Source: a virus (Duplodnaviria; Caudoviricetes). Taken from it: a stretch of 50,005 nucleotides of DNA. Both the position numbers and the translations under genes were made by a program. The notes beneath the pieces were generated by a model. The model was not told where the DNA came from, searched no databases, and saw only the letters and a list, made by a program, of their open reading frames with translations. The DNA is taken from positions 1 through 50,005 of the IMG/VR virus record IMGVR_UViG_3300031825_000373, one strand, 5' to 3'. Of the stretch, positions 1-46,542 are shown in pieces (the stretch's first letter is position 1; each line of letters opens with the position of its first letter).

Positions 1-1887
1 TCATGCCGCGAAGTCTCCGGCGCCCCGCGATCTGGAAACGCGGAGCGTGGTCACGCCGGCCGCGTCCGGCTCGAGGGCGGCGACGACCAGCCGGTCGCCG
101 GGCCTGACATCCGCGTCGAACAGGGCGCGCGCCAAAGGGTTCACGAGGTGCGTCTCCACCTTGTTGCGGATGCCCCGGCCACCGTTGGAGAGGTCCGCCA
201 AGGCCAGCTCCGCCAGTCGCTCCCGTGCGCTGTCGGAGAGAATGACCTCGATATGTTGGGTCGCCTCCACGTCCTTGAGGATGCCATTGACCATGCCTGC
301 AAGGATCTGCGCCCCGACCTCGGCTCGTACGAAGTCGAAGACGAGCACGTTGTCGCCGATTCGGTTCAGGAGCTCGGGCCGGTTCAGCGCCATCTTGAAA
401 TGACGCTCGATCTCGGTGCGAACCTTGGCCTGAACGACCTCGAAAGCATCATCCGGCGTCACGTTCGCGACGCGTGTGCCGTCCGCCTCGAGACGGTAGA
501 TGCCGAGGTTCGAGGTAAATACGATGAATGCCTCGGAGAAATAGACCCGGTCGCCGCGGCCGGAGGTGAGGACGCCGTCGTCCAGCACCTGGAGGAACTT
601 GTCGAGGATGCGCGGGTGCGCCTTCTCGATCTCGTCGAACAGGACGACGCAGAACGGCTTCTCCCGCACTGCGTTGGTCAGTTCGCCGCCGACGTCGTAA
701 CCGATATAGCCGGGCGGGGCGCCGATCAGCCGCTGATCGGAATGCTCGGCGGAGAATTCCGACATGTCGAAGCGCACGTAGGCCGTATCATCACCGAACA
801 GGAGGCTGGTGAGCGTCTTGGCGAGTTCGGTCTTGCCGACCCCCGTCGGCCCGGCCAGGAATGCGACGCCGCGCGGCCGGCTGCCGCGACGAGGTGCGCC
901 CACGCCGGTGACCGCCCGCTTCACGATGTCCAGCACATGGGTGACGGCATGGTCCTGGCCTTTCACCCGGGCGCGGATGAAATCCGCGCCATGGCGCACC
1001 TTGTCCCGCTCGATGCGCGCCCATGGATCCTCGGTCACGCCCACCTTGTAGCGGCGCACTGCATCGCCGACGCGCTGCAAGCTCAGCCCCTCGGAGCGGC
1101 CGAGCTGGATGATGGCGGAAAGGTCCACCAGCAGCAGCCCCTCCGTCTGCTCCACCAGCGCGTCCAGGGCAGCATCCATCTCGGCCGGGCTAGCCGCCCG
1201 CGCGCCGTCGAGGCCCGGCAGGAGCATCGACGCCAATTGCCGCCTAAAATGATGGTCCGGCGCGGCGACCGGAACGTGGCGAATGCGCGGATTGTCGACG
1301 ACGAGCCAGTCCGGCAGGTCGCCTTCCTTGTCGACGATCCAGATTACGGTGTTGAAGAACGGGCGCGGCGGCGTCCCGCAAGGCCGCGCACGGGCTTGGT
1401 GGGATAGCACCAACGCGCGGGTGAACATCTGATGCTCGGCATTGGACAGCGCGTCGGTGCGTACGACAAGGCGCGAGGCGAAGTCGGCGATCAGGGCGAT
1501 GGGGCCGTCAACCGACGCAATTCCGCCGGCCACGCGCCCCAGCACGTCCGAGAACAGATCCGGCCCAGCCGGTGCAGTCCCGTCGCTCCCGACTGTCAGG
1601 CCGAGCTGCGTCAGGAGCGCCGCACCGGCGGATGGGCTCTCACCGGGTCGCTGGAGGGGGCGAAAACCGGTGACGGGATCGTAGCCGATCACAGAGACAT
1701 AGCCCGCCGCCCGCAGGGCTGTCGTCAGCGCCGAACTGAGCGGGACCGCTGCAACCGTGCCGGGCGCCACCTCCACGACCTGCAAGTCCCGCACATTGCC
1801 GGAGAGAACGAACTGCGGCTTGAGCGGCAGAAAGCGGACCAGATCACGCAGCCAGCGCGGCGCCTCATAGGCAGTTGATGCGGACAC
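1..1887 (-). CDS. Host-side AAA+ ATPase, ClpA/B D2-like module with a degenerate N-terminal AAA-like module
   Basis: Walker A GPTGVGKT, RFDMSEF, LIGAPPGYIGY, Walker B VVLFDEIEKAH, NRPELLNRI, GGRGIRN. No Clp N-domain or second Walker A is visible, so it is not canonical clpB. Lies outside the att site. Confidence 0.8.
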   Translation of the reverse strand: MSASTAYEAPRWLRDLVRFLPLKPQFVLSGNVRDLQVVEVAPGTVAAVPLSSALTTALRAAGYVSVIGYDPVTGFRPLQRPGESPSAGAALLTQLGLTVGSDGTAPAGPDLFSDVLGRVAGGIASVDGPIALIADFASRLVVRTDALSNAEHQMFTRALVLSHQARARPCGTPPRPFFNTVIWIVDKEGDLPDWLVVDNPRIRHVPVAAPDHHFRRQLASMLLPGLDGARAASPAEMDAALDALVEQTEGLLLVDLSAIIQLGRSEGLSLQRVGDAVRRYKVGVTEDPWARIERDKVRHGADFIRARVKGQDHAVTHVLDIVKRAVTGVGAPRRGSRPRGVAFLAGPTGVGKTELAKTLTSLLFGDDTAYVRFDMSEFSAEHSDQRLIGAPPGYIGYDVGGELTNAVREKPFCVVLFDEIEKAHPRILDKFLQVLDDGVLTSGRGDRVYFSEAFIVFTSNLGIYRLEADGTRVANVTPDDAFEVVQAKVRTEIERHFKMALNRPELLNRIGDNVLVFDFVRAEVGAQILAGMVNGILKDVEATQHIEVILSDSARERLAELALADLSNGGRGIRNKVETHLVNPLARALFDADVRPGDRLVVAALEPDAAGVTTLRVSRSRGAGDFAA

Positions 1888-2361
1888 CTCGGACGCCCCC
1901 GTCGATCATATGTCGAAGCCCGTGACCGGACTCAAGCCTGACGGCAATCGTAAAGGCAATTCGACGGGAGTTCGACAGTTGCCTCAACCTGGAGGAAACA
2001 CCAGCACGTGCCATGCTATGGGGGCGGGCGCCACGGGGCGGGAGGACTTATACGCCACCCCATTGATTGCTTGCCGGCATCCAACTGCCACACGTGCTCC
2101 TTCCATCGGTGCCTCTCGATGCCGCTGTGGGCGCCGTCGCGGACCATGGTGCCGCCGTTGCCGGGGTTTGCTGTCGGTGCACTCGTCAGGAATTCGATGC
2201 TTCGCCGCGCCGATAGTCAAGGTGGAGCCGGATAGGCTGCGCATCCGCAGAGGACGCAGGCATTTGGTGGCGTGGCGACTCGGTGGCGACTCGCGGCTTC
2301 TGATGCCCCATCCGAGCGCGGGCGTCAGGAGAGATTGTCTAAATTTCTGAATGGCTTGTGG

Positions 2362-2406
2362 TGGTACAGGTGGGTGGGTTCGAACCACCGACCTCCGGTT
2401 CCACAG
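2362..2406 (-). pseudogene. 3' half of tRNA-His(GTG), att core duplication at the left prophage boundary
   Basis: Reverse complement is CTGTGGA ACCGG AGGTC GGTGG TTCGAAC CCACC CACCTGT A CCA: anticodon loop with GTG, T-arm, 3' acceptor strand and CCA. The sequence on its 5' side (TCACA) cannot pair with ACCGG, and no D-arm or 5' acceptor strand is present. Confidence 0.85.
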
Positions 2407-2432
2407 TGTGACGTACTCTAGAGCAAGCGATT

Positions 2433-2461
2433 GAGGGGATTGGGAAAAACCCAGTCCTCTC
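2433..2461 (+). other. 12-bp stem-loop between att and the RNAP genes (terminator or processing site candidate)
   Basis: GAGGGGATTGGG-AAAAA-CCCAGTCCTCTC pairs with two G-U wobbles; no long U tract follows. Confidence 0.45.
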
Positions 2462-2478
2462 TGTGCCTTATTGGGCCA

Positions 2479-2499
2479 CAACTCCACTAAATCTCACTG
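2479..2499 (+). promoter_or_regulatory. Motif A copy (asymmetric 21-bp repeat) upstream of the RNAP N-subunit gene
   Basis: CAACTCCACTAAATCTCACTG, 19/21 match to consensus CAACTCCACCAAATCACACTG. Confidence 0.7.
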
Positions 2500-2526
2500 T
2501 CTCAATTACTTACATCAGGTGAGAAC

Positions 2527-3339
2527 GTGGCACACTTTAGGCACACTGAGCCGCACATCGCGGACATCGAGAAGCAGATCAGGTGGGAGATGCACGGGGT
2601 CGAGCGGGGCGCTGAGCGCGTCCGCGAGGCCATGGCCGAGGCCAAGCATCTGGGCGACACCGACGTGGGCATGAAGCTCATCGCCAAGGTCGCACCCAAG
2701 CTCATCGCCAAGATCAGGGAAGCCCAGACCGAGGCCACCCTGGGGGTCAACTCCGGCAAGCGAGGCGCGCCCCAGCAGTGGTGGTGGCTGATCCTCACCA
2801 TCGACGCCGAGCAACTGGCGGTCATCGTCCTCAAGTCCCTTTTCACGCAAAGCCCGCGTGAATTTACGTTCAACCTATCGGTGACGTCGGTGGCCAACGC
2901 CATCTCGAAGCACTCCCACACCCAGATCGACTACGAGGAGTGGAAGGCGACCGAGAAGGAGAAGGCCAAGGAAGCGGCCAAGGCCGGTGACGAAGACCAC
3001 GTCGACCAGCACATGCGGTTCCTGCGCTCGACCAAGCAGCTGGATCACCGCGCCTGGGCGAAGTTCACCGCCCGCATTCAGCGGGTCCGCAAGGAGAAGT
3101 GGCCCATCGACGCTGGTGTCCAGTTCGGCGCCAAGATGGTCGAGCTGCTGTGTGACGCGGTCCCCGACTGGTTCAGCGTCCAGGACAACCGCCTGAAGGG
3201 CGGACAGCACGAGAAGGCCATCGTCTTCAGTGACGAGGCCAAGCTGACCATGGCCGACCTGATGGAGCGCAATGAGGTCTCCCGACCCATGCTCCTGCCG
3301 ATGATCTGCCCGCCCGCCCCCTGGCGCCGCGCTTCCTGA
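2527..3339 (+). CDS. T7-like RNA polymerase, N-terminal (promoter-binding) subunit
   Basis: GTG start after AGGTGAG. QIRWEMHGVERGAER N-terminal helix, SGKRGAP (like the T7 AT-rich recognition loop), GVQFGAKMVELL, and ending RPMLLPMICPPAPW, equivalent to T7 SPMFQPCVVPPKPW. Confidence 0.85.
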   Translation: MAHFRHTEPHIADIEKQIRWEMHGVERGAERVREAMAEAKHLGDTDVGMKLIAKVAPKLIAKIREAQTEATLGVNSGKRGAPQQWWWLILTIDAEQLAVIVLKSLFTQSPREFTFNLSVTSVANAISKHSHTQIDYEEWKATEKEKAKEAAKAGDEDHVDQHMRFLRSTKQLDHRAWAKFTARIQRVRKEKWPIDAGVQFGAKMVELLCDAVPDWFSVQDNRLKGGQHEKAIVFSDEAKLTMADLMERNEVSRPMLLPMICPPAPWRRAS

Positions 3340-3367
3340 CCCCAGCTCCAGCTCGAAAGGACACACC

Positions 3368-5077
3368 ATGTCGCGGAAGAAGCGCGCCTATGAGGGTGGC
3401 TACTATTTCATCAACCAGGACCTCATCCGGTCGGGCCTGTACGAGCACACCACGGCGCTGGAGGACCCCATCTCCGAGGAGACGCTGGAGGGCCTGAACA
3501 TCGTCCAGGCGACCCCGTGGGCGATCAATGGCTGGCTGCTCGACACCATGCGTCAGGCGTACCTTGAGGGTGCCTACCTGGGCGACCTTCCGTATGCCGA
3601 CGAGGTGCCCATCCCCCGCAAGACGGATGAGGAATGGGAGGCCATGGAGGACGTCGAGAAGTCCCTGTGGAAGCAGGAGCTGGCCGACATCCACGCGATC
3701 AACGCCCGCATGATGGGCCGTCGCCACAGCTTCAACCACCGGCTCGACATCGCGCAGCAGCTGCGGGACCAGACCATCTGGTTCCCCCACTTCCTCGACT
3801 TCCGCACCCGCCTGTACCCCATGTGTCAGGACCTCCACACCCAGTCCGATGACGCGGGGCGGGCTCTGCTGCGGTTCGGAAAGGGCAAGCGCCTGGGCAA
3901 GCGTGGGCTGTACTGGCTGGCTGTACGCCTCGCCAACACCTACGGTCAGGACAAGCTGCCCTTTGACGAGCGCGTCGAGTGGGTCCGTAAGCACCATGAC
4001 CTGATCCTCGACAGCGGACGTGATCCGCTTGACGGGCAGCGGTTCTGGGCCGCGACGGACGCGAAGGGCAAGCCCGTGGCCGACGAGCCCTGGAATTTCC
4101 TGGCGACGTGCCGCGAGTGGTACGAGGCGCACCTTCTCGACGATCCCAAGGACTACGTCTCCTACCTCCCGATCCAGATGGATGGCTCCTGCAATGGGCT
4201 CCAGCATCTGTCGGCCATGGGCCGGGACCGGGTGGGTGCCACCGCGACCAACGTGGCGGCTAACACCGAGCGTCAGGACATCTACCTGATGGTGGCCGAC
4301 GTGGTGATGAAGCTGGTCAGCGAGGACGCCGTGGAAGGCAACGCCCTGGCGCACCAGTGGGTCGGGAAGATCGGCCGCAAGACCGTCAAGCGGGCCGTCA
4401 TGACGACGCCCTATGGCGTGACCGAGCGGGGCATCTCCGACCAGATCAGGAACGACGGCCACGTCAAGGACATGGACGACAAGGGCGCCGCTGCGGCTTT
4501 CCTGAGAGACAAGATCGTGCTGGCCCTTGAGCAGACCGTCGTGTCCGCCAAGACCATCATGGCCTGGATACAGGAGGTCGCGAAGCGTCTGTCCGAGGCG
4601 GACATCCCGTTCCGCTTCACCACGCCCTGCGGCTCCAAGGTCGAGCAGTCCTATGTCCAGCTCCAGAAGACCCAGGTGACGACCCTCCTGGGCAAGCTGG
4701 TGCTGTGGAAGCCTGACCGCTTCGCCGGTCTCAATGACCGCAAGCAGATGCTGGCGAGCGCCCCGAACGTCATCCATGCGTTCGACGCTGCCCATCTCAC
4801 CAAGACCGTGCTCCGCATGGTCCGCGAGGCCACCGACGAGGTGTCCTTCTCCATGATCCACGACAGCTATGGCGTCCATGCCTGCGACGTGGACCTTCTG
4901 CACCGCTGCATCCGCGAGGAGTTCGTCGCGATCTACCAGACGGACTGGCTCCAGCGGATTGAGGATGAGGTCAGGGCGTATGCCCCTGACGTCGACATCC
5001 CGAGCTATCGGGACTTCGTGACTGTGGGCGACTTCGACGTGAGCGAGTGCCTGAACAGCCCGTTTTTCTTCGCCTAG
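3368..5077 (+). CDS. T7-like RNA polymerase, catalytic (C-terminal) subunit
   Basis: Own SD (GAAAGGA) and ATG. Begins at the GGYY motif; LNIVQATPWAIN, LDFRTRLYP, motif A DGSCNGLQH, motif B RKTVKRAVMTTPYG, APNVIHAFDAAHL, motif C IHDSYG, C-terminal FFFA foot. Confidence 0.95.
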   Translation: MSRKKRAYEGGYYFINQDLIRSGLYEHTTALEDPISEETLEGLNIVQATPWAINGWLLDTMRQAYLEGAYLGDLPYADEVPIPRKTDEEWEAMEDVEKSLWKQELADIHAINARMMGRRHSFNHRLDIAQQLRDQTIWFPHFLDFRTRLYPMCQDLHTQSDDAGRALLRFGKGKRLGKRGLYWLAVRLANTYGQDKLPFDERVEWVRKHHDLILDSGRDPLDGQRFWAATDAKGKPVADEPWNFLATCREWYEAHLLDDPKDYVSYLPIQMDGSCNGLQHLSAMGRDRVGATATNVAANTERQDIYLMVADVVMKLVSEDAVEGNALAHQWVGKIGRKTVKRAVMTTPYGVTERGISDQIRNDGHVKDMDDKGAAAAFLRDKIVLALEQTVVSAKTIMAWIQEVAKRLSEADIPFRFTTPCGSKVEQSYVQLQKTQVTTLLGKLVLWKPDRFAGLNDRKQMLASAPNVIHAFDAAHLTKTVLRMVREATDEVSFSMIHDSYGVHACDVDLLHRCIREEFVAIYQTDWLQRIEDEVRAYAPDVDIPSYRDFVTVGDFDVSECLNSPFFFA

Positions 5078-5098
5078 CAACTCCATCAAATCACACAC
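5078..5098 (+). promoter_or_regulatory. Motif A copy immediately after the RNAP stop codon
   Basis: CAACTCCATCAAATCACACAC, 18/21. Confidence 0.65.
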
Positions 5099-5120
5099 TC
5101 ACCAGGGACAGGACAGGGAC

Positions 5121-5948
5121 ATGAAGGCAGTTGATGAGATGATGAAGATGAAGCACTTCCCCGATCTGGCGTACCCGATGCGGTTCCAGCAAATGCAGCG
5201 GGAGCGGATCGCAGCCTTCCGCGCGGCGCTAAACCTGCGACCGCAATCGTTTCCCGAGGCCGGGCTTCTCGAAAAGGCGCGCTTGAACGTTCTGCGTGAC
5301 GTCTACGGCCGGTTCGCCCCTCCGGTGGACCCGCTGGCTCCCGTCAAGAAGCCGCAGCTGTACGTCAAGTCCGCATTCTCGGAGTCCAACGAGTACATGC
5401 GCCGTCTCCGGAGGCGTGGCTTTGAGGAGATCGGTGGGGGTGCTTACTCGACCGTGTTCACCCGGCCTGGGTGGGACAAGGTTCTGAAGGTCTGCCGACA
5501 TGCTCGGGACTACTGGCCCGCCTATGCCAAGTGGTGCCAGCAGACGAAGAGCCCACACGCCATCCGGGTCTATAGTATCAAGCACCACAAAGGCTTCTAC
5601 GTCGCCATCATGGAGAAGGTGAAGCCCGCCCGAGACCAGCACAAACTCAGCGATCTGTCCTCCTACATCTGGGACTGCGGAAGCAAGGCTCCGACGATGG
5701 TCGCAACGTCGCTGAAGAATGCCGCAATAGCTGGTCAGACCAAGATTGTGGCCAAGGAGTATCCGAAGCTTCCTGCCTTCCTGCGGCTGGTGAGAAGGCT
5801 TGGGACTGATCTCCATGCGGGAAACTGGGGCACTCGGGAGGATGGCACGCCAGTGATCTTCGACCCCGTAACAACCGAAATCCCCCCGAAGTTCGCCTCG
5901 AAGTTCCACAACACCAAGCGCTTCCGTAGCACGGCCCCACGGGCTTAG
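5121..5948 (+). CDS. Phage protein kinase, T7 gp0.7-like
   Basis: Gly-rich loop IGGGAYSTVF, VLKV lysine, catalytic loop DLHAGN, and IFDPV, parallel to T7 gp0.7 DMHSGN and ITDPV. Confidence 0.8.
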   Translation: MKAVDEMMKMKHFPDLAYPMRFQQMQRERIAAFRAALNLRPQSFPEAGLLEKARLNVLRDVYGRFAPPVDPLAPVKKPQLYVKSAFSESNEYMRRLRRRGFEEIGGGAYSTVFTRPGWDKVLKVCRHARDYWPAYAKWCQQTKSPHAIRVYSIKHHKGFYVAIMEKVKPARDQHKLSDLSSYIWDCGSKAPTMVATSLKNAAIAGQTKIVAKEYPKLPAFLRLVRRLGTDLHAGNWGTREDGTPVIFDPVTTEIPPKFASKFHNTKRFRSTAPRA

Positions 5949-21286: not shown

Positions 21287-21787
21287 ATGTACGTAAACAG
21301 ACCGAAAAAAGGACGACCTGTTGGATCAGGTAGGGCCAACAGATGGATAGAAGAGCTTCTGAGTACGAACGATCATAAGGACGGTTGTGTGGAGTGGCCA
21401 TTCAGTAAAACTGAAAGTGGGTATGGGTTTTTCACAAACGATGGCGTTCGTTATCGGGTAAATCGCTTTGTATGTAGAAGGGTCTATGGTGAGCCTTCGT
21501 CAGAGGACTTGGACGCAGCTCATTCTTGTGGGAACCGTCTATGTGTTAATCCGAGCCACCTCAGGTGGGCAACCAGAAAGGAAAACTGTGCAGACCGTCT
21601 GATACACGGAACCGAGAACGTCGGTGAGAAAAACGGACAAGCAAAGCTGACTGAAGAGGATGTTCGGGAGATACGTGCGCTTCTCGAAAGTGGGATGAAG
21701 CGGAAGCTGATTGCAGATAGGTTCCATATATCTCTGAGCCACCTGGATGCGATACGAGCCAGGACTAAATGGGCCTATTCTAATTAG
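21287..21787 (+). CDS. HNH homing endonuclease with C-terminal HTH
   Basis: CVEWP...GYG...AAHSCGNRLCVNPSHLRWATRKEN...GEKNGQAKLTEEDV; AT-rich. Confidence 0.88.
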   Translation: MYVNRPKKGRPVGSGRANRWIEELLSTNDHKDGCVEWPFSKTESGYGFFTNDGVRYRVNRFVCRRVYGEPSSEDLDAAHSCGNRLCVNPSHLRWATRKENCADRLIHGTENVGEKNGQAKLTEEDVREIRALLESGMKRKLIADRFHISLSHLDAIRARTKWAYSN

Positions 21788-25153: not shown

Positions 25154-25229
25154 TGCCAAGTAGCTCAGTTGGTAGAGCAGGTGACTGTTAATCACCGGGT
25201 CGGAGGTTCGATCCCTCCCTTGGCAGCCA
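25154..25229 (+). tRNA. tRNA-Asn (GTT), phage-encoded
   Basis: Acceptor TGCCAAG/CTTGGCA, G discriminator, CCA; D-arm GCTC AGTTGGTA GAGC; anticodon arm GGTGA CTGTTAA TCACC; T-arm GGAGG TTCGATC CCTCC; 76 nt. Confidence 0.95.
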
Positions 25230-45298: not shown

Positions 45299-45319
45299 CA
45301 ACTCCACCAAATCACACTG
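45299..45319 (+). promoter_or_regulatory. Motif A consensus copy
   Basis: CAACTCCACCAAATCACACTG directly between a stop codon and SD AGGAG. Confidence 0.75.
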
Positions 45320-45332
45320 AGGAGCGCGCACC

Positions 45333-45545
45333 ATGTCCGACGAACTGCTTACCCTTGAGAACGCGGAACGCTACGTCGCCACGACCTTTGAGGGCATTCC
45401 GACCATGAGCCACATCGCGACCGTAGACGGTACCGTCATCATCGTTGTCCGGTTCATCAGGGACGGCGCCACCTTTGAGGCAGAAGTCTGGATCGATGAG
45501 GGACAGCTTTACGGGGAATACGGCGGACTGCCTTCCAGCCTCTGA
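45333..45545 (+). CDS. Early hypothetical protein
   Basis: SD GAGGAG; acidic 70 aa. Confidence 0.65.
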   Translation: MSDELLTLENAERYVATTFEGIPTMSHIATVDGTVIIVVRFIRDGATFEAEVWIDEGQLYGEYGGLPSSL

Positions 45546-45549
45546 GGGT

Positions 45550-45598
45550 GACGCCAGCTAGGGGAGCCTTACGGGGCTCCCACGGCGGGCACCATGCC
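45550..45598 (+). repeat. 49-bp direct repeat copy 1 (interrupted hairpin)
   Basis: GACGCCAGCTAGGGGAGCCTTACGGGGCTCCCACGGCGGGCACCATGCC; 47/49 identical to 46549-46597. Confidence 0.9.
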
Positions 45599-45601
45599 TG
45601 A

Positions 45602-45622
45602 CAACTCCACCAAATCACACTG
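45602..45622 (+). promoter_or_regulatory. Motif A consensus copy
   Basis: CAACTCCACCAAATCACACTG before SD GAAGGA. Confidence 0.75.
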
Positions 45623-45639
45623 ACGAAGGAACTGTAGCC

Positions 45640-46542
45640 ATGGCCAATCACTCCGCCGTTGCCCACGCATGGGCGCACCGCACGGGACGTCAGACGAAGG
45701 GCTTCAATGTCTTTTATGAGCGGGACACCATCTATTCCTATGGTTACCACTTCGCCATTGCTCGCCATTACGTTGACGCGCATGGTAACGCCTGTGTTCT
45801 CTTCAATCGGAACCACTATTCGCCCTCGACAAGCCAGCATCAGCATTACGTCGCCAGCGCTTGCCGCCACCTCCCGACCTATCAGGTTGCTAACCCGTGC
45901 CGTGATCCGAGCCGCGCCGATTGGGAGGCTTTCATTCAGGAGGCGCAGGACTGGGCGGACAAGGCGAAGCGTGCGCGGAAGTATGGTGATAGCTACCTGC
46001 GTTATGCGGCGGGGTATCTGGCCGACGCCAACGCCTTTAACGAAGCGTTCGCCCTCGGTTGCCCTACCGTCTCCCTTGAGACGCTTGGCCTTGTCACTGC
46101 GGACATTGCGGCGCGCCTTGAAGCCGAACGCCTTCGTCAGGCTCAAGAGGCGGCACAGCGTGAAGCCGAACGCCATGCACGTCAGGAAGCCACTCGGAAC
46201 GCATGGCTTGCCGGTGAAGAGGGTGTGTACTGGCATGGTCGCTCGCTCACTGGCGGCGCCTTGCTGCGGATCACAGGCGAGGAGCTTGAGACGTCCCTAG
46301 GTGCCTCTGTGCCTCTCTCCCACGCAATCCGCGTGTTCCGGTTCGTGTCCGAATGCCGGGCCAAGGGGGCCGATTGGAGGCCGAACGGGAAGAGCGTGCA
46401 TGTCGGCCACTTCACGGTTGATCGGGTCTATCCCAACGGGGATTTCAAGGCCGGTTGCCACCTCATTGAGTGGTCCGAGACGGAACGCCTTGCGCGCCAG
46501 CTGGGCCTTTTGACGCCCGACAACTCCACCAATTCACACTGA
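45640..46542 (+). CDS. Early hypothetical protein (300 aa)
   Basis: SD GAAGGA; VAHAWA, IYSYGYHFAIA, YSPSTSQHQ, LETSLGASVP, AGCHLI; function not recognised. Confidence 0.8.
   Translation: MANHSAVAHAWAHRTGRQTKGFNVFYERDTIYSYGYHFAIARHYVDAHGNACVLFNRNHYSPSTSQHQHYVASACRHLPTYQVANPCRDPSRADWEAFIQEAQDWADKAKRARKYGDSYLRYAAGYLADANAFNEAFALGCPTVSLETLGLVTADIAARLEAERLRQAQEAAQREAERHARQEATRNAWLAGEEGVYWHGRSLTGGALLRITGEELETSLGASVPLSHAIRVFRFVSECRAKGADWRPNGKSVHVGHFTVDRVYPNGDFKAGCHLIEWSETERLARQLGLLTPDNSTNSH
46521..46541 (+). promoter_or_regulatory. Motif A copy overlapping a gene end
   Basis: CAACTCCACCAATTCACACTG, 20/21; contributes to the TGA stop. Confidence 0.7.

Follow-up and report, generated by a model that had tools for sequence, protein, structure and literature searches.

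At one edge of the 50,005-base provirus record IMGVR_UViG_3300031825_000373 from IMG/VR (Duplodnaviria; Caudoviricetes), which was analysed over its whole length and is called the window below, lie two adjacent genes that together hold the domains of a T7-type RNA polymerase (RNAP). T7 RNAP is the textbook one-protein polymerase and a standard biotechnology tool, and the locus described here looks like a working two-subunit form of this classic one-subunit enzyme. A first-pass annotation had placed the polymerase in two open reading frames (ORFs) in different frames, 28 nt apart, with a Shine-Dalgarno sequence (SD; GAAAGGA) ahead of the second, and the coordinates confirm this arrangement:

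2527–3339, plus strand: ORF1, the RNAP N-subunit, with a GTG start, 270 amino acids (aa) and the C-terminus PMICPPAPWRRAS followed by the stop
3340–3367, plus strand: intergenic spacer of 28 nt, with the SD GAAAGGA at 3355–3361
3368–5077, plus strand: ORF2, the RNAP C-subunit, with an ATG start, 569 aa and the N-terminus MSRKKRAYEGGYY

The TGA stop codon of ORF1 occupies 3337–3339, 6 nt separate GAAAGGA from the ATG of ORF2, and the ORF2 frame is +1 relative to that of ORF1.

Profile searches assigned both products to the same enzyme family. ORF1 matches Pfam RPOL_N (47.4 bits at a cut-off of 30.1, E 2.4e-12, profile positions 2–287 of 334), and for ORF2 the match is RNA_pol (PF00940; 373 bits at a cut-off of 22, E 2.1e-111). 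Because ORF1 covers positions 4–246 (E 1.2e-23) and ORF2 positions 248–816 (E 8.4e-165) of phrog_414 ('RNA polymerase', 816 positions), the two are consecutive pieces of one family profile. In alignments to solved structures, ORF1 residues 16–267 matched T7 RNAP 35–279 weakly (E 0.006), and ORF2 residues 19–325 matched T7 RNAP 296–590 with E 8.7e-60 and 206 bits; the top match of ORF2 was the yeast mitochondrial RNA polymerase (mtRNAP; E 3.3e-83, 283 bits).

The catalytic motifs are all intact, as the first reading had held: DFRTR, DGSCNGLQH, RKTVKRAVMTTPYGVT and HDSYG of ORF2 align to yeast mtRNAP, and the corresponding columns are invariant in 26 C-subunits, where D272, K341, Y349, H498 and D499 are among the invariant positions. 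Both the DxxGR motif (DFRTR, residues 144–148) and motif A fall within ORF2, which holds the T7-type catalytic core (T/DxxGR and motifs A, B and C): the remaining C-linker with its GGYY head, the thumb, the palm, the fingers and every catalytic motif. In ORF1, sequence alignment places GKRGAP opposite T7 KRGKRP and LKGGQHE opposite the T7 hairpin segment; these T7 segments are the AT-rich loop and the intercalating hairpin that the N-terminal part had been said to carry. With them and its hinge prolines, ORF1 represents, by its sequence, the promoter-binding N-terminal domain. Where the T7-type family is defined by a single polypeptide, the window has two ORFs, parted by a stop codon and a spacer and with a separate SD and ATG for the second; relatives keep this arrangement.

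By the alignments of ORF1 and ORF2 to T7 RNAP, the seam between the two genes corresponds to about T7 residues 279–284. Tang et al. (2014, PMC3961267) define a T7 'C-linker region' of residues 251 to 296, which connects the promoter-binding domain, a part that rotates, with the catalytic domain; they set its hinge at 258–266 with P266 and P270 conserved, and report linker rigidity to be important for abortive cycling and timely promoter clearance. Because the alignment pairs ORF1 P254 with T7 P266, P258 with P270 and W266 with the tryptophan of PPKPW, the natural cut maps inside the C-linker, about 13 residues past the hinge. This is slightly ahead of the 'around residue 290' given in the first reading. 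Judged from the same alignment, the N-subunit retains all rotating or refolding parts, and its post-hinge anchor is a short tail alone. The N-subunit alignment (ORF1 and 13 homologues) has 39 invariant columns, which are concentrated in this tail (R253, P254, L256, P258, M259, P262, P263 and W266) and also include G80, P82, G225 and E229.

The split is widely conserved. A search for ORF1 homologues of near length returned 13 proteins of 244–282 aa at 48–98% identity, all of which end in PPxxW plus 2–7 residues; the five that carry a source-given name are all called 'hypothetical protein'. For ORF2, the length window was set at 312–996 aa, so that fused forms could surface, and gave 1363 matches. 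Among the best 120 of these, 112 (44–96% identity) consist of the C domain alone and start within a few residues of GGYY, the methionine standing a few residues ahead of it. Four contain N and C domains together (P0052, P0060, P0124 and the odd P0084), and the other four either have a 50-aa head (P0063) or begin just inside the domain (P0113, P0118 and P0127). P0084, at 574 aa, joins N-profile positions 5–71 directly to C-profile positions 57–556, and is an internally deleted or chimeric RNAP. A profile built from 14 N-subunits and run against 1.84 billion cluster representatives found 647 matches at E<=1e-3 and 114 at E<=1e-30; the best 150 of the 647 comprise 130 full stand-alone N proteins, 6 fragments and 14 fused forms, and the stand-alone proteins end at most 45 aa past the seam (median 6). 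Well over a hundred related prophage lineages retain the same cut, which bears out the original view that the split is natural rather than a sequencing indel. A separate search for longer ORF1 homologues returned no fused form, which is weak evidence, fused forms having surfaced in the other homologue searches.

We then located the genes in bacterial chromosomes. Relatives sought with the N-subunit alignment in genome, viral and metagenome contigs were not found; the C-subunit alignment (26 of the 120 listed matches plus the window) led to 21 loci in species-representative genomes, at which stop-to-stop ORFs were scored against both the N profile and the C profile:

Adjacent split genes: Devosia enhydra (L004), an Acetobacteraceae metagenome-assembled genome (MAG; L006), a Magnetococcales MAG (L010), Asaia sp. 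(L011, with an in-frame stop) and Variovorax (L014)
N and C genes split, with 0.8–1.7 kb of other ORFs between them: a MAG (L005), Marivibrio halodurans (L007), Rhizobacter (L015), Caballeronia (L017) and Xylophilus (L019)
N gene frameshifted, C gene intact: L008, duplicated as L018 in the same genome
Broken in several frames: L013 and L024
Fused RNAP: Nitrospirillum (L009), L012, SAR92 (L016) and an Acidimicrobiaceae MAG (L020)
Probably fused (a long ORF in which the N profile detects no N domain): L021–L023

An N gene lies within 2.5 kb upstream at 11 of the 11 distinct C-only loci, so related prophages keep the split at the same seam, as had been proposed for checking; together with the two homologue sets, these loci show close homologues to be split there and not fused. 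The clade, mostly of Alpha- and Betaproteobacteria among the named genomes, is large and uncharacterised, and is cut in the C-linker. L008 and L018 are two identical RNAP regions on one Thalassobaculaceae MAG chromosome, with N in two frames, and reflect either a duplicated decaying prophage or an assembly consensus error. Just upstream of the N gene, L007 (tRNA-Asn, at the prophage edge) and L011 carry tRNA genes; in L016 it is the fused RNAP that has them upstream.

The junctions themselves vary, from TGA plus 28 nt in the window to an ATGA overlap (L004 and L010), TAA plus 14 nt, TAA plus 24 nt in the same frame and TAG plus 128 nt, and at each junction compared the C gene has its own start codon. 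These differing junctions, each with its own start, therefore mean separate translation and exclude a recoding signal common to all. The seam is also an insertion spot for accessory genes in relatives, at the following coordinates between the N and C genes:

L005: 3461–4851
L007: 3529–4995
L015: 3381–4909
L017: 3958–4925
L019: 4200–4886

Of the 10 ORFs found there in five genomes, one in L019 encodes a Bro-N protein, one in L017 has a Rha-like match that falls short of the cut-off, and one in L015, on the opposite strand, encodes a SWIM protein; the remaining seven have no match or a weak one below the cut-off, with DUF7560 and Zn_ribbon_PaaD both on one small ORF of L017. The insert of L005 is a two-gene cassette (267 and 195 aa), and L015 has two ORFs on the opposite strand. 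As causes of the split, a homing endonuclease and a trans-splicing intein were both considered and rejected: none of the 10 ORFs between N and C in the five genomes is a homing endonuclease, Pfam shows RPOL_N and RNA_pol alone, and the seam leaves a tail of 4 and a head of 9 residues.

Independent assemblies agree with the window at this point. Parts of 2400–5200 occur in 24 public runs from 13 studies, and run X1, which may be the source, contains all of it. The seam was checked on the Logan contigs of runs X1–X4, which are assembled contigs rather than raw reads; X2, X3 and X4 belong to studies other than that of X1 and supply independent assemblies of relatives at about 92–99% identity. Records 9 and 10 of X2 span 3255–4272 and 3255–3661, record 13 of X3 spans 3221–3560, and record 17 of X4 spans 2400–5198 with 222 substitutions. 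All bridge 3339–3368 with 0 gaps, the table of inserted or omitted letters is empty, and by this check, which had been set beforehand, there is no assembly error at the seam. In the two runs on record as RNA, X10 and X15, fractions of 0.17 and 0.11 of the sampled words of 2400–5200 were present.

To follow the history of the split, the C domains of 65 proteins and loci (the window, 32 of the 112 C-only matches, 12 fused proteins and 20 loci) were placed in a quick IQ-TREE phylogeny (LG+G4) that omits L013 and L024 (broken) and L018 (duplicate). Fused forms outside the clade come from the isolates S2B and Lo5R7ANS and from loci L012 and L020–L023; others are scattered inside the mainly split clade. 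This tree requires at least 8 changes between the split and fused states, and its starred branches force at least 5; the stars of a quick search with a long-branch warning call for caution. Between PPxxW and GGY, canonical fused forms have a gap of 5 residues (5 of the 5 readable), and the 12 fused forms nested among split ones have 8–17, similar to the split tail and head added together (4 + 9 residues in the window). Such a gap is compatible with re-fusion or with an ancestrally long loop that was split several times, and fits either direction. Repeated gene fission and fusion at one seam is documented in this clade.

Structure prediction points to a joint fold of the two products. The N/C complex model reached an ipSAE of 0.82 (0.83, 0.80 and 0.82 in separate runs), and the best of 3 controls scored 0.01. 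In calibration, 58 of 80 solved complexes reach the mark, as do 2 of 110 mismatched pairs. The runs share at least 82% of their contacts, and the partner pLDDT is at least 74. In the model, the confident interface sets N 254–269 against C 5–15, 43–51, 135–141 and 152–157, and the N body also touches C 435–447. This check, run on the idea that the two parts form one T7-like assembly, came out in its favour; the pass supports a likeness to T7 RNAP and is no proof of binding. Taken with the anatomy and its conservation, we consider it very probable that ORF1 and ORF2 are two subunits of a T7-type RNAP whose parts are produced separately and come together non-covalently.

Single-chain RNAPs of the Autographiviridae have the same two Pfam domains in the same order, with the same catalytic motifs, and likewise stand at the start of a T7-like gene order. 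The nearest isolates are Mesorhizobium phage Lo5R7ANS, Rhizobium phages RHEph01 and TRX32-1 and Caulobacter phage S2B, to which ORF2 is 34–36% identical. In contrast to the two ORFs of the window, the isolate phages have one RNAP ORF of about 820–830 aa, with 5 residues from PPxxW to GGY. Searched against 50,697 phage records, ORF2 gave 2763 matches, all below 60% identity, the best at 34–36%, and the two that were inspected are fused. ORF1 had no match at E<=1e-5 in the same records; at E<=1 there were 21 weak matches, none above 26% identity, and the 15 of them listed all lie inside annotated fused RNAP genes and end at residue 266. A betaproteobacterial N-subunit found 5 weak matches only.

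N4 RNAPII is, as here, a natural heterodimer of the same family, and ORF1 and ORF2 share its organisation as two subunits encoded by adjacent genes. According to its description (PMC4496689), N4 gp15 (269 aa) comprises a truncated N-terminus, the thumb and DX2GR, gp16 (404 aa) comprises the palm, the fingers and motifs A–C, and the enzyme needs the cofactors gp1/gp2. On that account the N4 seam falls within the catalytic part, between DX2GR and motif A, whereas the seam of the window lies ahead of both. The distinction from N4 RNAPII drawn at the outset is therefore sound: the C-subunit contains DxxGR as well as motifs A–C, and the N-subunit consists of a full RPOL_N domain. The match to the PHROG 'N4-like RNA polymerase' family is also far weaker than that to phrog_414 (5e-50 versus 8e-165).

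Engineered enzymes offer a second comparison. T7 RNAP tolerates separately translated, reassembling fragments with seams in surface-exposed regions, and three of the five seams are at 67, 179 and 601, leucine zippers being added to strengthen association and needed for good activity (Segall-Shapiro et al. 2014, PMC4299498). The natural seam at about 280 was compared with these three named positions only, and may or may not match one of the other two. In work on T7 phage from the Bull laboratory (PMC6009699), splitting the RNAP at the beta-sigma breakpoint (601) is reported to leave fitness 'profoundly suppressed'. The natural split differs from the engineered ones in being evolved, widespread and free of an added dimerisation domain. 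A full-text literature search, with subscription journals mostly outside its scope and an earlier mention thus possible, turned up no description of a T7-type RNAP that is naturally divided between its N-terminal domain and its core.

The mitochondrial enzymes score higher against ORF2 than T7 RNAP does (283 bits for yeast and 250 for human mtRNAP versus 206). mtRNAPs (Rpo41/POLRMT) delegate part of initiation to a separate, releasable protein. They are single chains with large N-terminal extensions, and the partners Mtf1/TFB2M are methyltransferase-like proteins rather than a detached RPOL_N domain.

The rival that survives best holds the C-subunit to be a whole minimal polymerase, like N4 RNAPII or mini-vRNAP, with N as a regulator or a dispensable remnant. 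It gains from the N4-type enzymes, which are reported (PMC4496689) to function with a truncated N-terminal domain and cofactors, from the locus L008/L018, where N is frameshifted and C intact, and from the faster evolution of the N-subunit. Yet an N gene accompanies all 11 C-only loci, the N-subunit keeps, by alignment, the segments of the loop, the hairpin and the hinge, and conservation within it peaks in the tail that is modelled against C, so that we rate this reading as quite improbable. A programmed +1 frameshift or readthrough near 3305–3339, which would yield a single chain, could draw on the ORF2 frame being open from 3305, where it overlaps the last 35 nt of ORF1, and on a C-rich run in that overlap. 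However, a shift within the overlap would cost the invariant W266 or the residues after it, relatives would need different shifts (+1 in the window, -1 in L004, L006 and L010, and an in-frame stop to pass in L011), distances of 128 nt to 1.7 kb between the genes of some relatives leave no common signal, and the ORF2 homologues start with their own methionine just before GGYY; recoding has very little probability. A frameshift pseudogene or assembly error, in which an indel broke a single-chain gene, would at first sight give different frames 28 nt apart and has true parallels in the broken copies (L013, L024 and the N gene of L008), but it is refuted for practical purposes, with next to no probability left, by the contigs of three other runs, by a seam shared down to about 45% identity in the C and N homologue sets, by whole genes between N and C in five genomes, and by the SD and ATG of ORF2 and the intact state of the other phage genes in the window.

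Several points weigh against the two-subunit reading. The direct sequence match between the N-subunit and T7 RNAP is faint (E 0.006), its identity resting on the Pfam and PHROG profiles. Solved single-chain T7 RNAP structures, remembered by the model, may account for the ipSAE score, and since our own alignments were fed to the complex model, the calibration holds only roughly. The N profile was derived from split forms and hence ranks split forms first, so that 130 of 150 describes the best matches and does not extend to all 647. The frameshifted N gene beside an intact C gene at L008/L018 suggests that some copies may be decaying or that C may tolerate the loss of N. For relaxed selection on either half, which the first reading had named as a refuting condition, the estimates are weak, with dN/dS at 0.43–0.61 for N and 0.25–0.63 for C at a near-saturated dS of 0.6–1.3, taken from a distant betaproteobacterial clade, and the N-subunit evolves faster than the C-subunit. 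Finally, the two-gene anatomy, the conservation and the domain content were observed directly; assembly, promoter use and activity are inferred.

The genes around the polymerase are those of a temperate T7-like prophage, with the RNAP at one edge beside host DNA, an integrase at the other and T7-like replication and structural modules between, all intact and collinear:

1–1887, minus strand: host ClpB-like AAA+ gene
about 2357–2432, minus strand: stretch resembling the 3' part of a tRNA, with the T-arm GGTGGTTCGAACCCACC and then a terminal CCA (our own reading; ARAGORN calls none)
2479–2497, plus strand: promoter-like motif CAACTCCAnCAAATCnCAC (repeat family D2), 30 nt upstream of the ORF1 start
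5078–5096, plus strand: copy of the promoter-like motif with 0 mismatches, directly past the ORF2 stop and ahead of the kinase-like gene
5121–5948: kinase-like gene (0.7-like; phrog_15752 protein kinase)
after the kinase: CHAP peptidase, gp2.5-like single-stranded DNA-binding protein, nucleotidyltransferase, Ant-like protein, primase/helicase, DNA polymerase, exonuclease
next: ribonucleotide reductase, PhoH, thymidylate synthase, HNH
then: portal, scaffold, capsid, tail tube A/B, internal virion proteins, fibre, TerL
25154–25229, plus strand: tRNA-Asn (GTT), intact, between scaffold and capsid
from 48833, running off the window end: tyrosine integrase

The stretch at 2357–2432, between the host AAA+ gene and the first promoter-like motif, probably represents what is left of an att site after integration into a tRNA gene. 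The layout of the edges matches that of Autographiviridae-type prophages, for which PMC12361551 describes integration sites between the integrase and RNAP genes. The HNH endonuclease (21287–21787, plus strand) is free-standing between thymidylate synthase and portal, and is unrelated to the RNAP seam.

CAACTCCAnCAAATCnCAC occurs in six plus-strand copies with 0–1 mismatch, at 2479, 5078, 5958, 45299, 45602 and 46521. At up to 3 mismatches there are 7 matches against a chance expectation of 0.08, a number that none of 100 shuffles attains. The motif is a candidate phage promoter. If it is one, the copy before ORF1 would mean that the polymerase genes are autoregulated. Three of the copies fall in 45299–46539 (plus strand), ahead of small family-less ORFs and the integrase; in the free phage genome this stretch would seem to be the early region.

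Put together, these features suggest how the enzyme may be made and used. Both genes would probably be co-transcribed from the phage-type promoter at 2479, and because ORF2 has its own SD and ATG, N and C would be translated separately. The N-subunit (270 aa) would provide the promoter-binding domain, with AT-rich loop, intercalating hairpin and hinge prolines, and the C-subunit (569 aa) the catalytic core, the cut falling just past the hinge on which the N-terminal domain turns as T7 RNAP departs from the promoter. The N-subunit tail RPMLLPMICPPAPW, rich in proline and strongly conserved, would dock on the GGYY head of the C-subunit and the neighbouring helices, and the assembled enzyme would then transcribe the T7-like genome occupying the remainder of the window.

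The sigma-like role and the control of lysogeny that the first reading proposed stay hypotheses. A bolder one, which we regard as unlikely, is that the N-subunit acts as a recyclable initiation factor, released or exchanged at promoter escape like sigma or the mitochondrial factors, and that a two-concentration threshold, with a phage promoter (2479) ahead of the polymerase's own genes, silences the autocatalytic RNAP in lysogens. If this were true, the cut in the C-linker would free N from the catalytic core, leaving chiefly the 13-residue proline tail and promoter DNA to retain it; the amount of active enzyme would scale with the product of two protein concentrations; and the switching between split and fused states, with the Bro-N and Rha-like inserts at the seam, would amount to tuning of the lysogeny switch.

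The core of the first-pass annotation holds, and the naturally split, two-gene T7-type RNAP it described extends beyond a single prophage. Full RNAPs exceed the C-subunits by about 250 aa, and surveys that expect about 800 aa may mis-handle the clade. Evolved split pairs without added dimerisation domains could serve as AND-gates or biosensors, if the self-assembly that we propose is real. The mostly alphaproteobacterial prophage clade may also bear on the origin of the mitochondrial polymerase. The clade severs the C-linker, the element reported in PMC3961267 to transmit the stress driving abortive cycling and promoter escape, and it thereby offers a natural experiment on that step.

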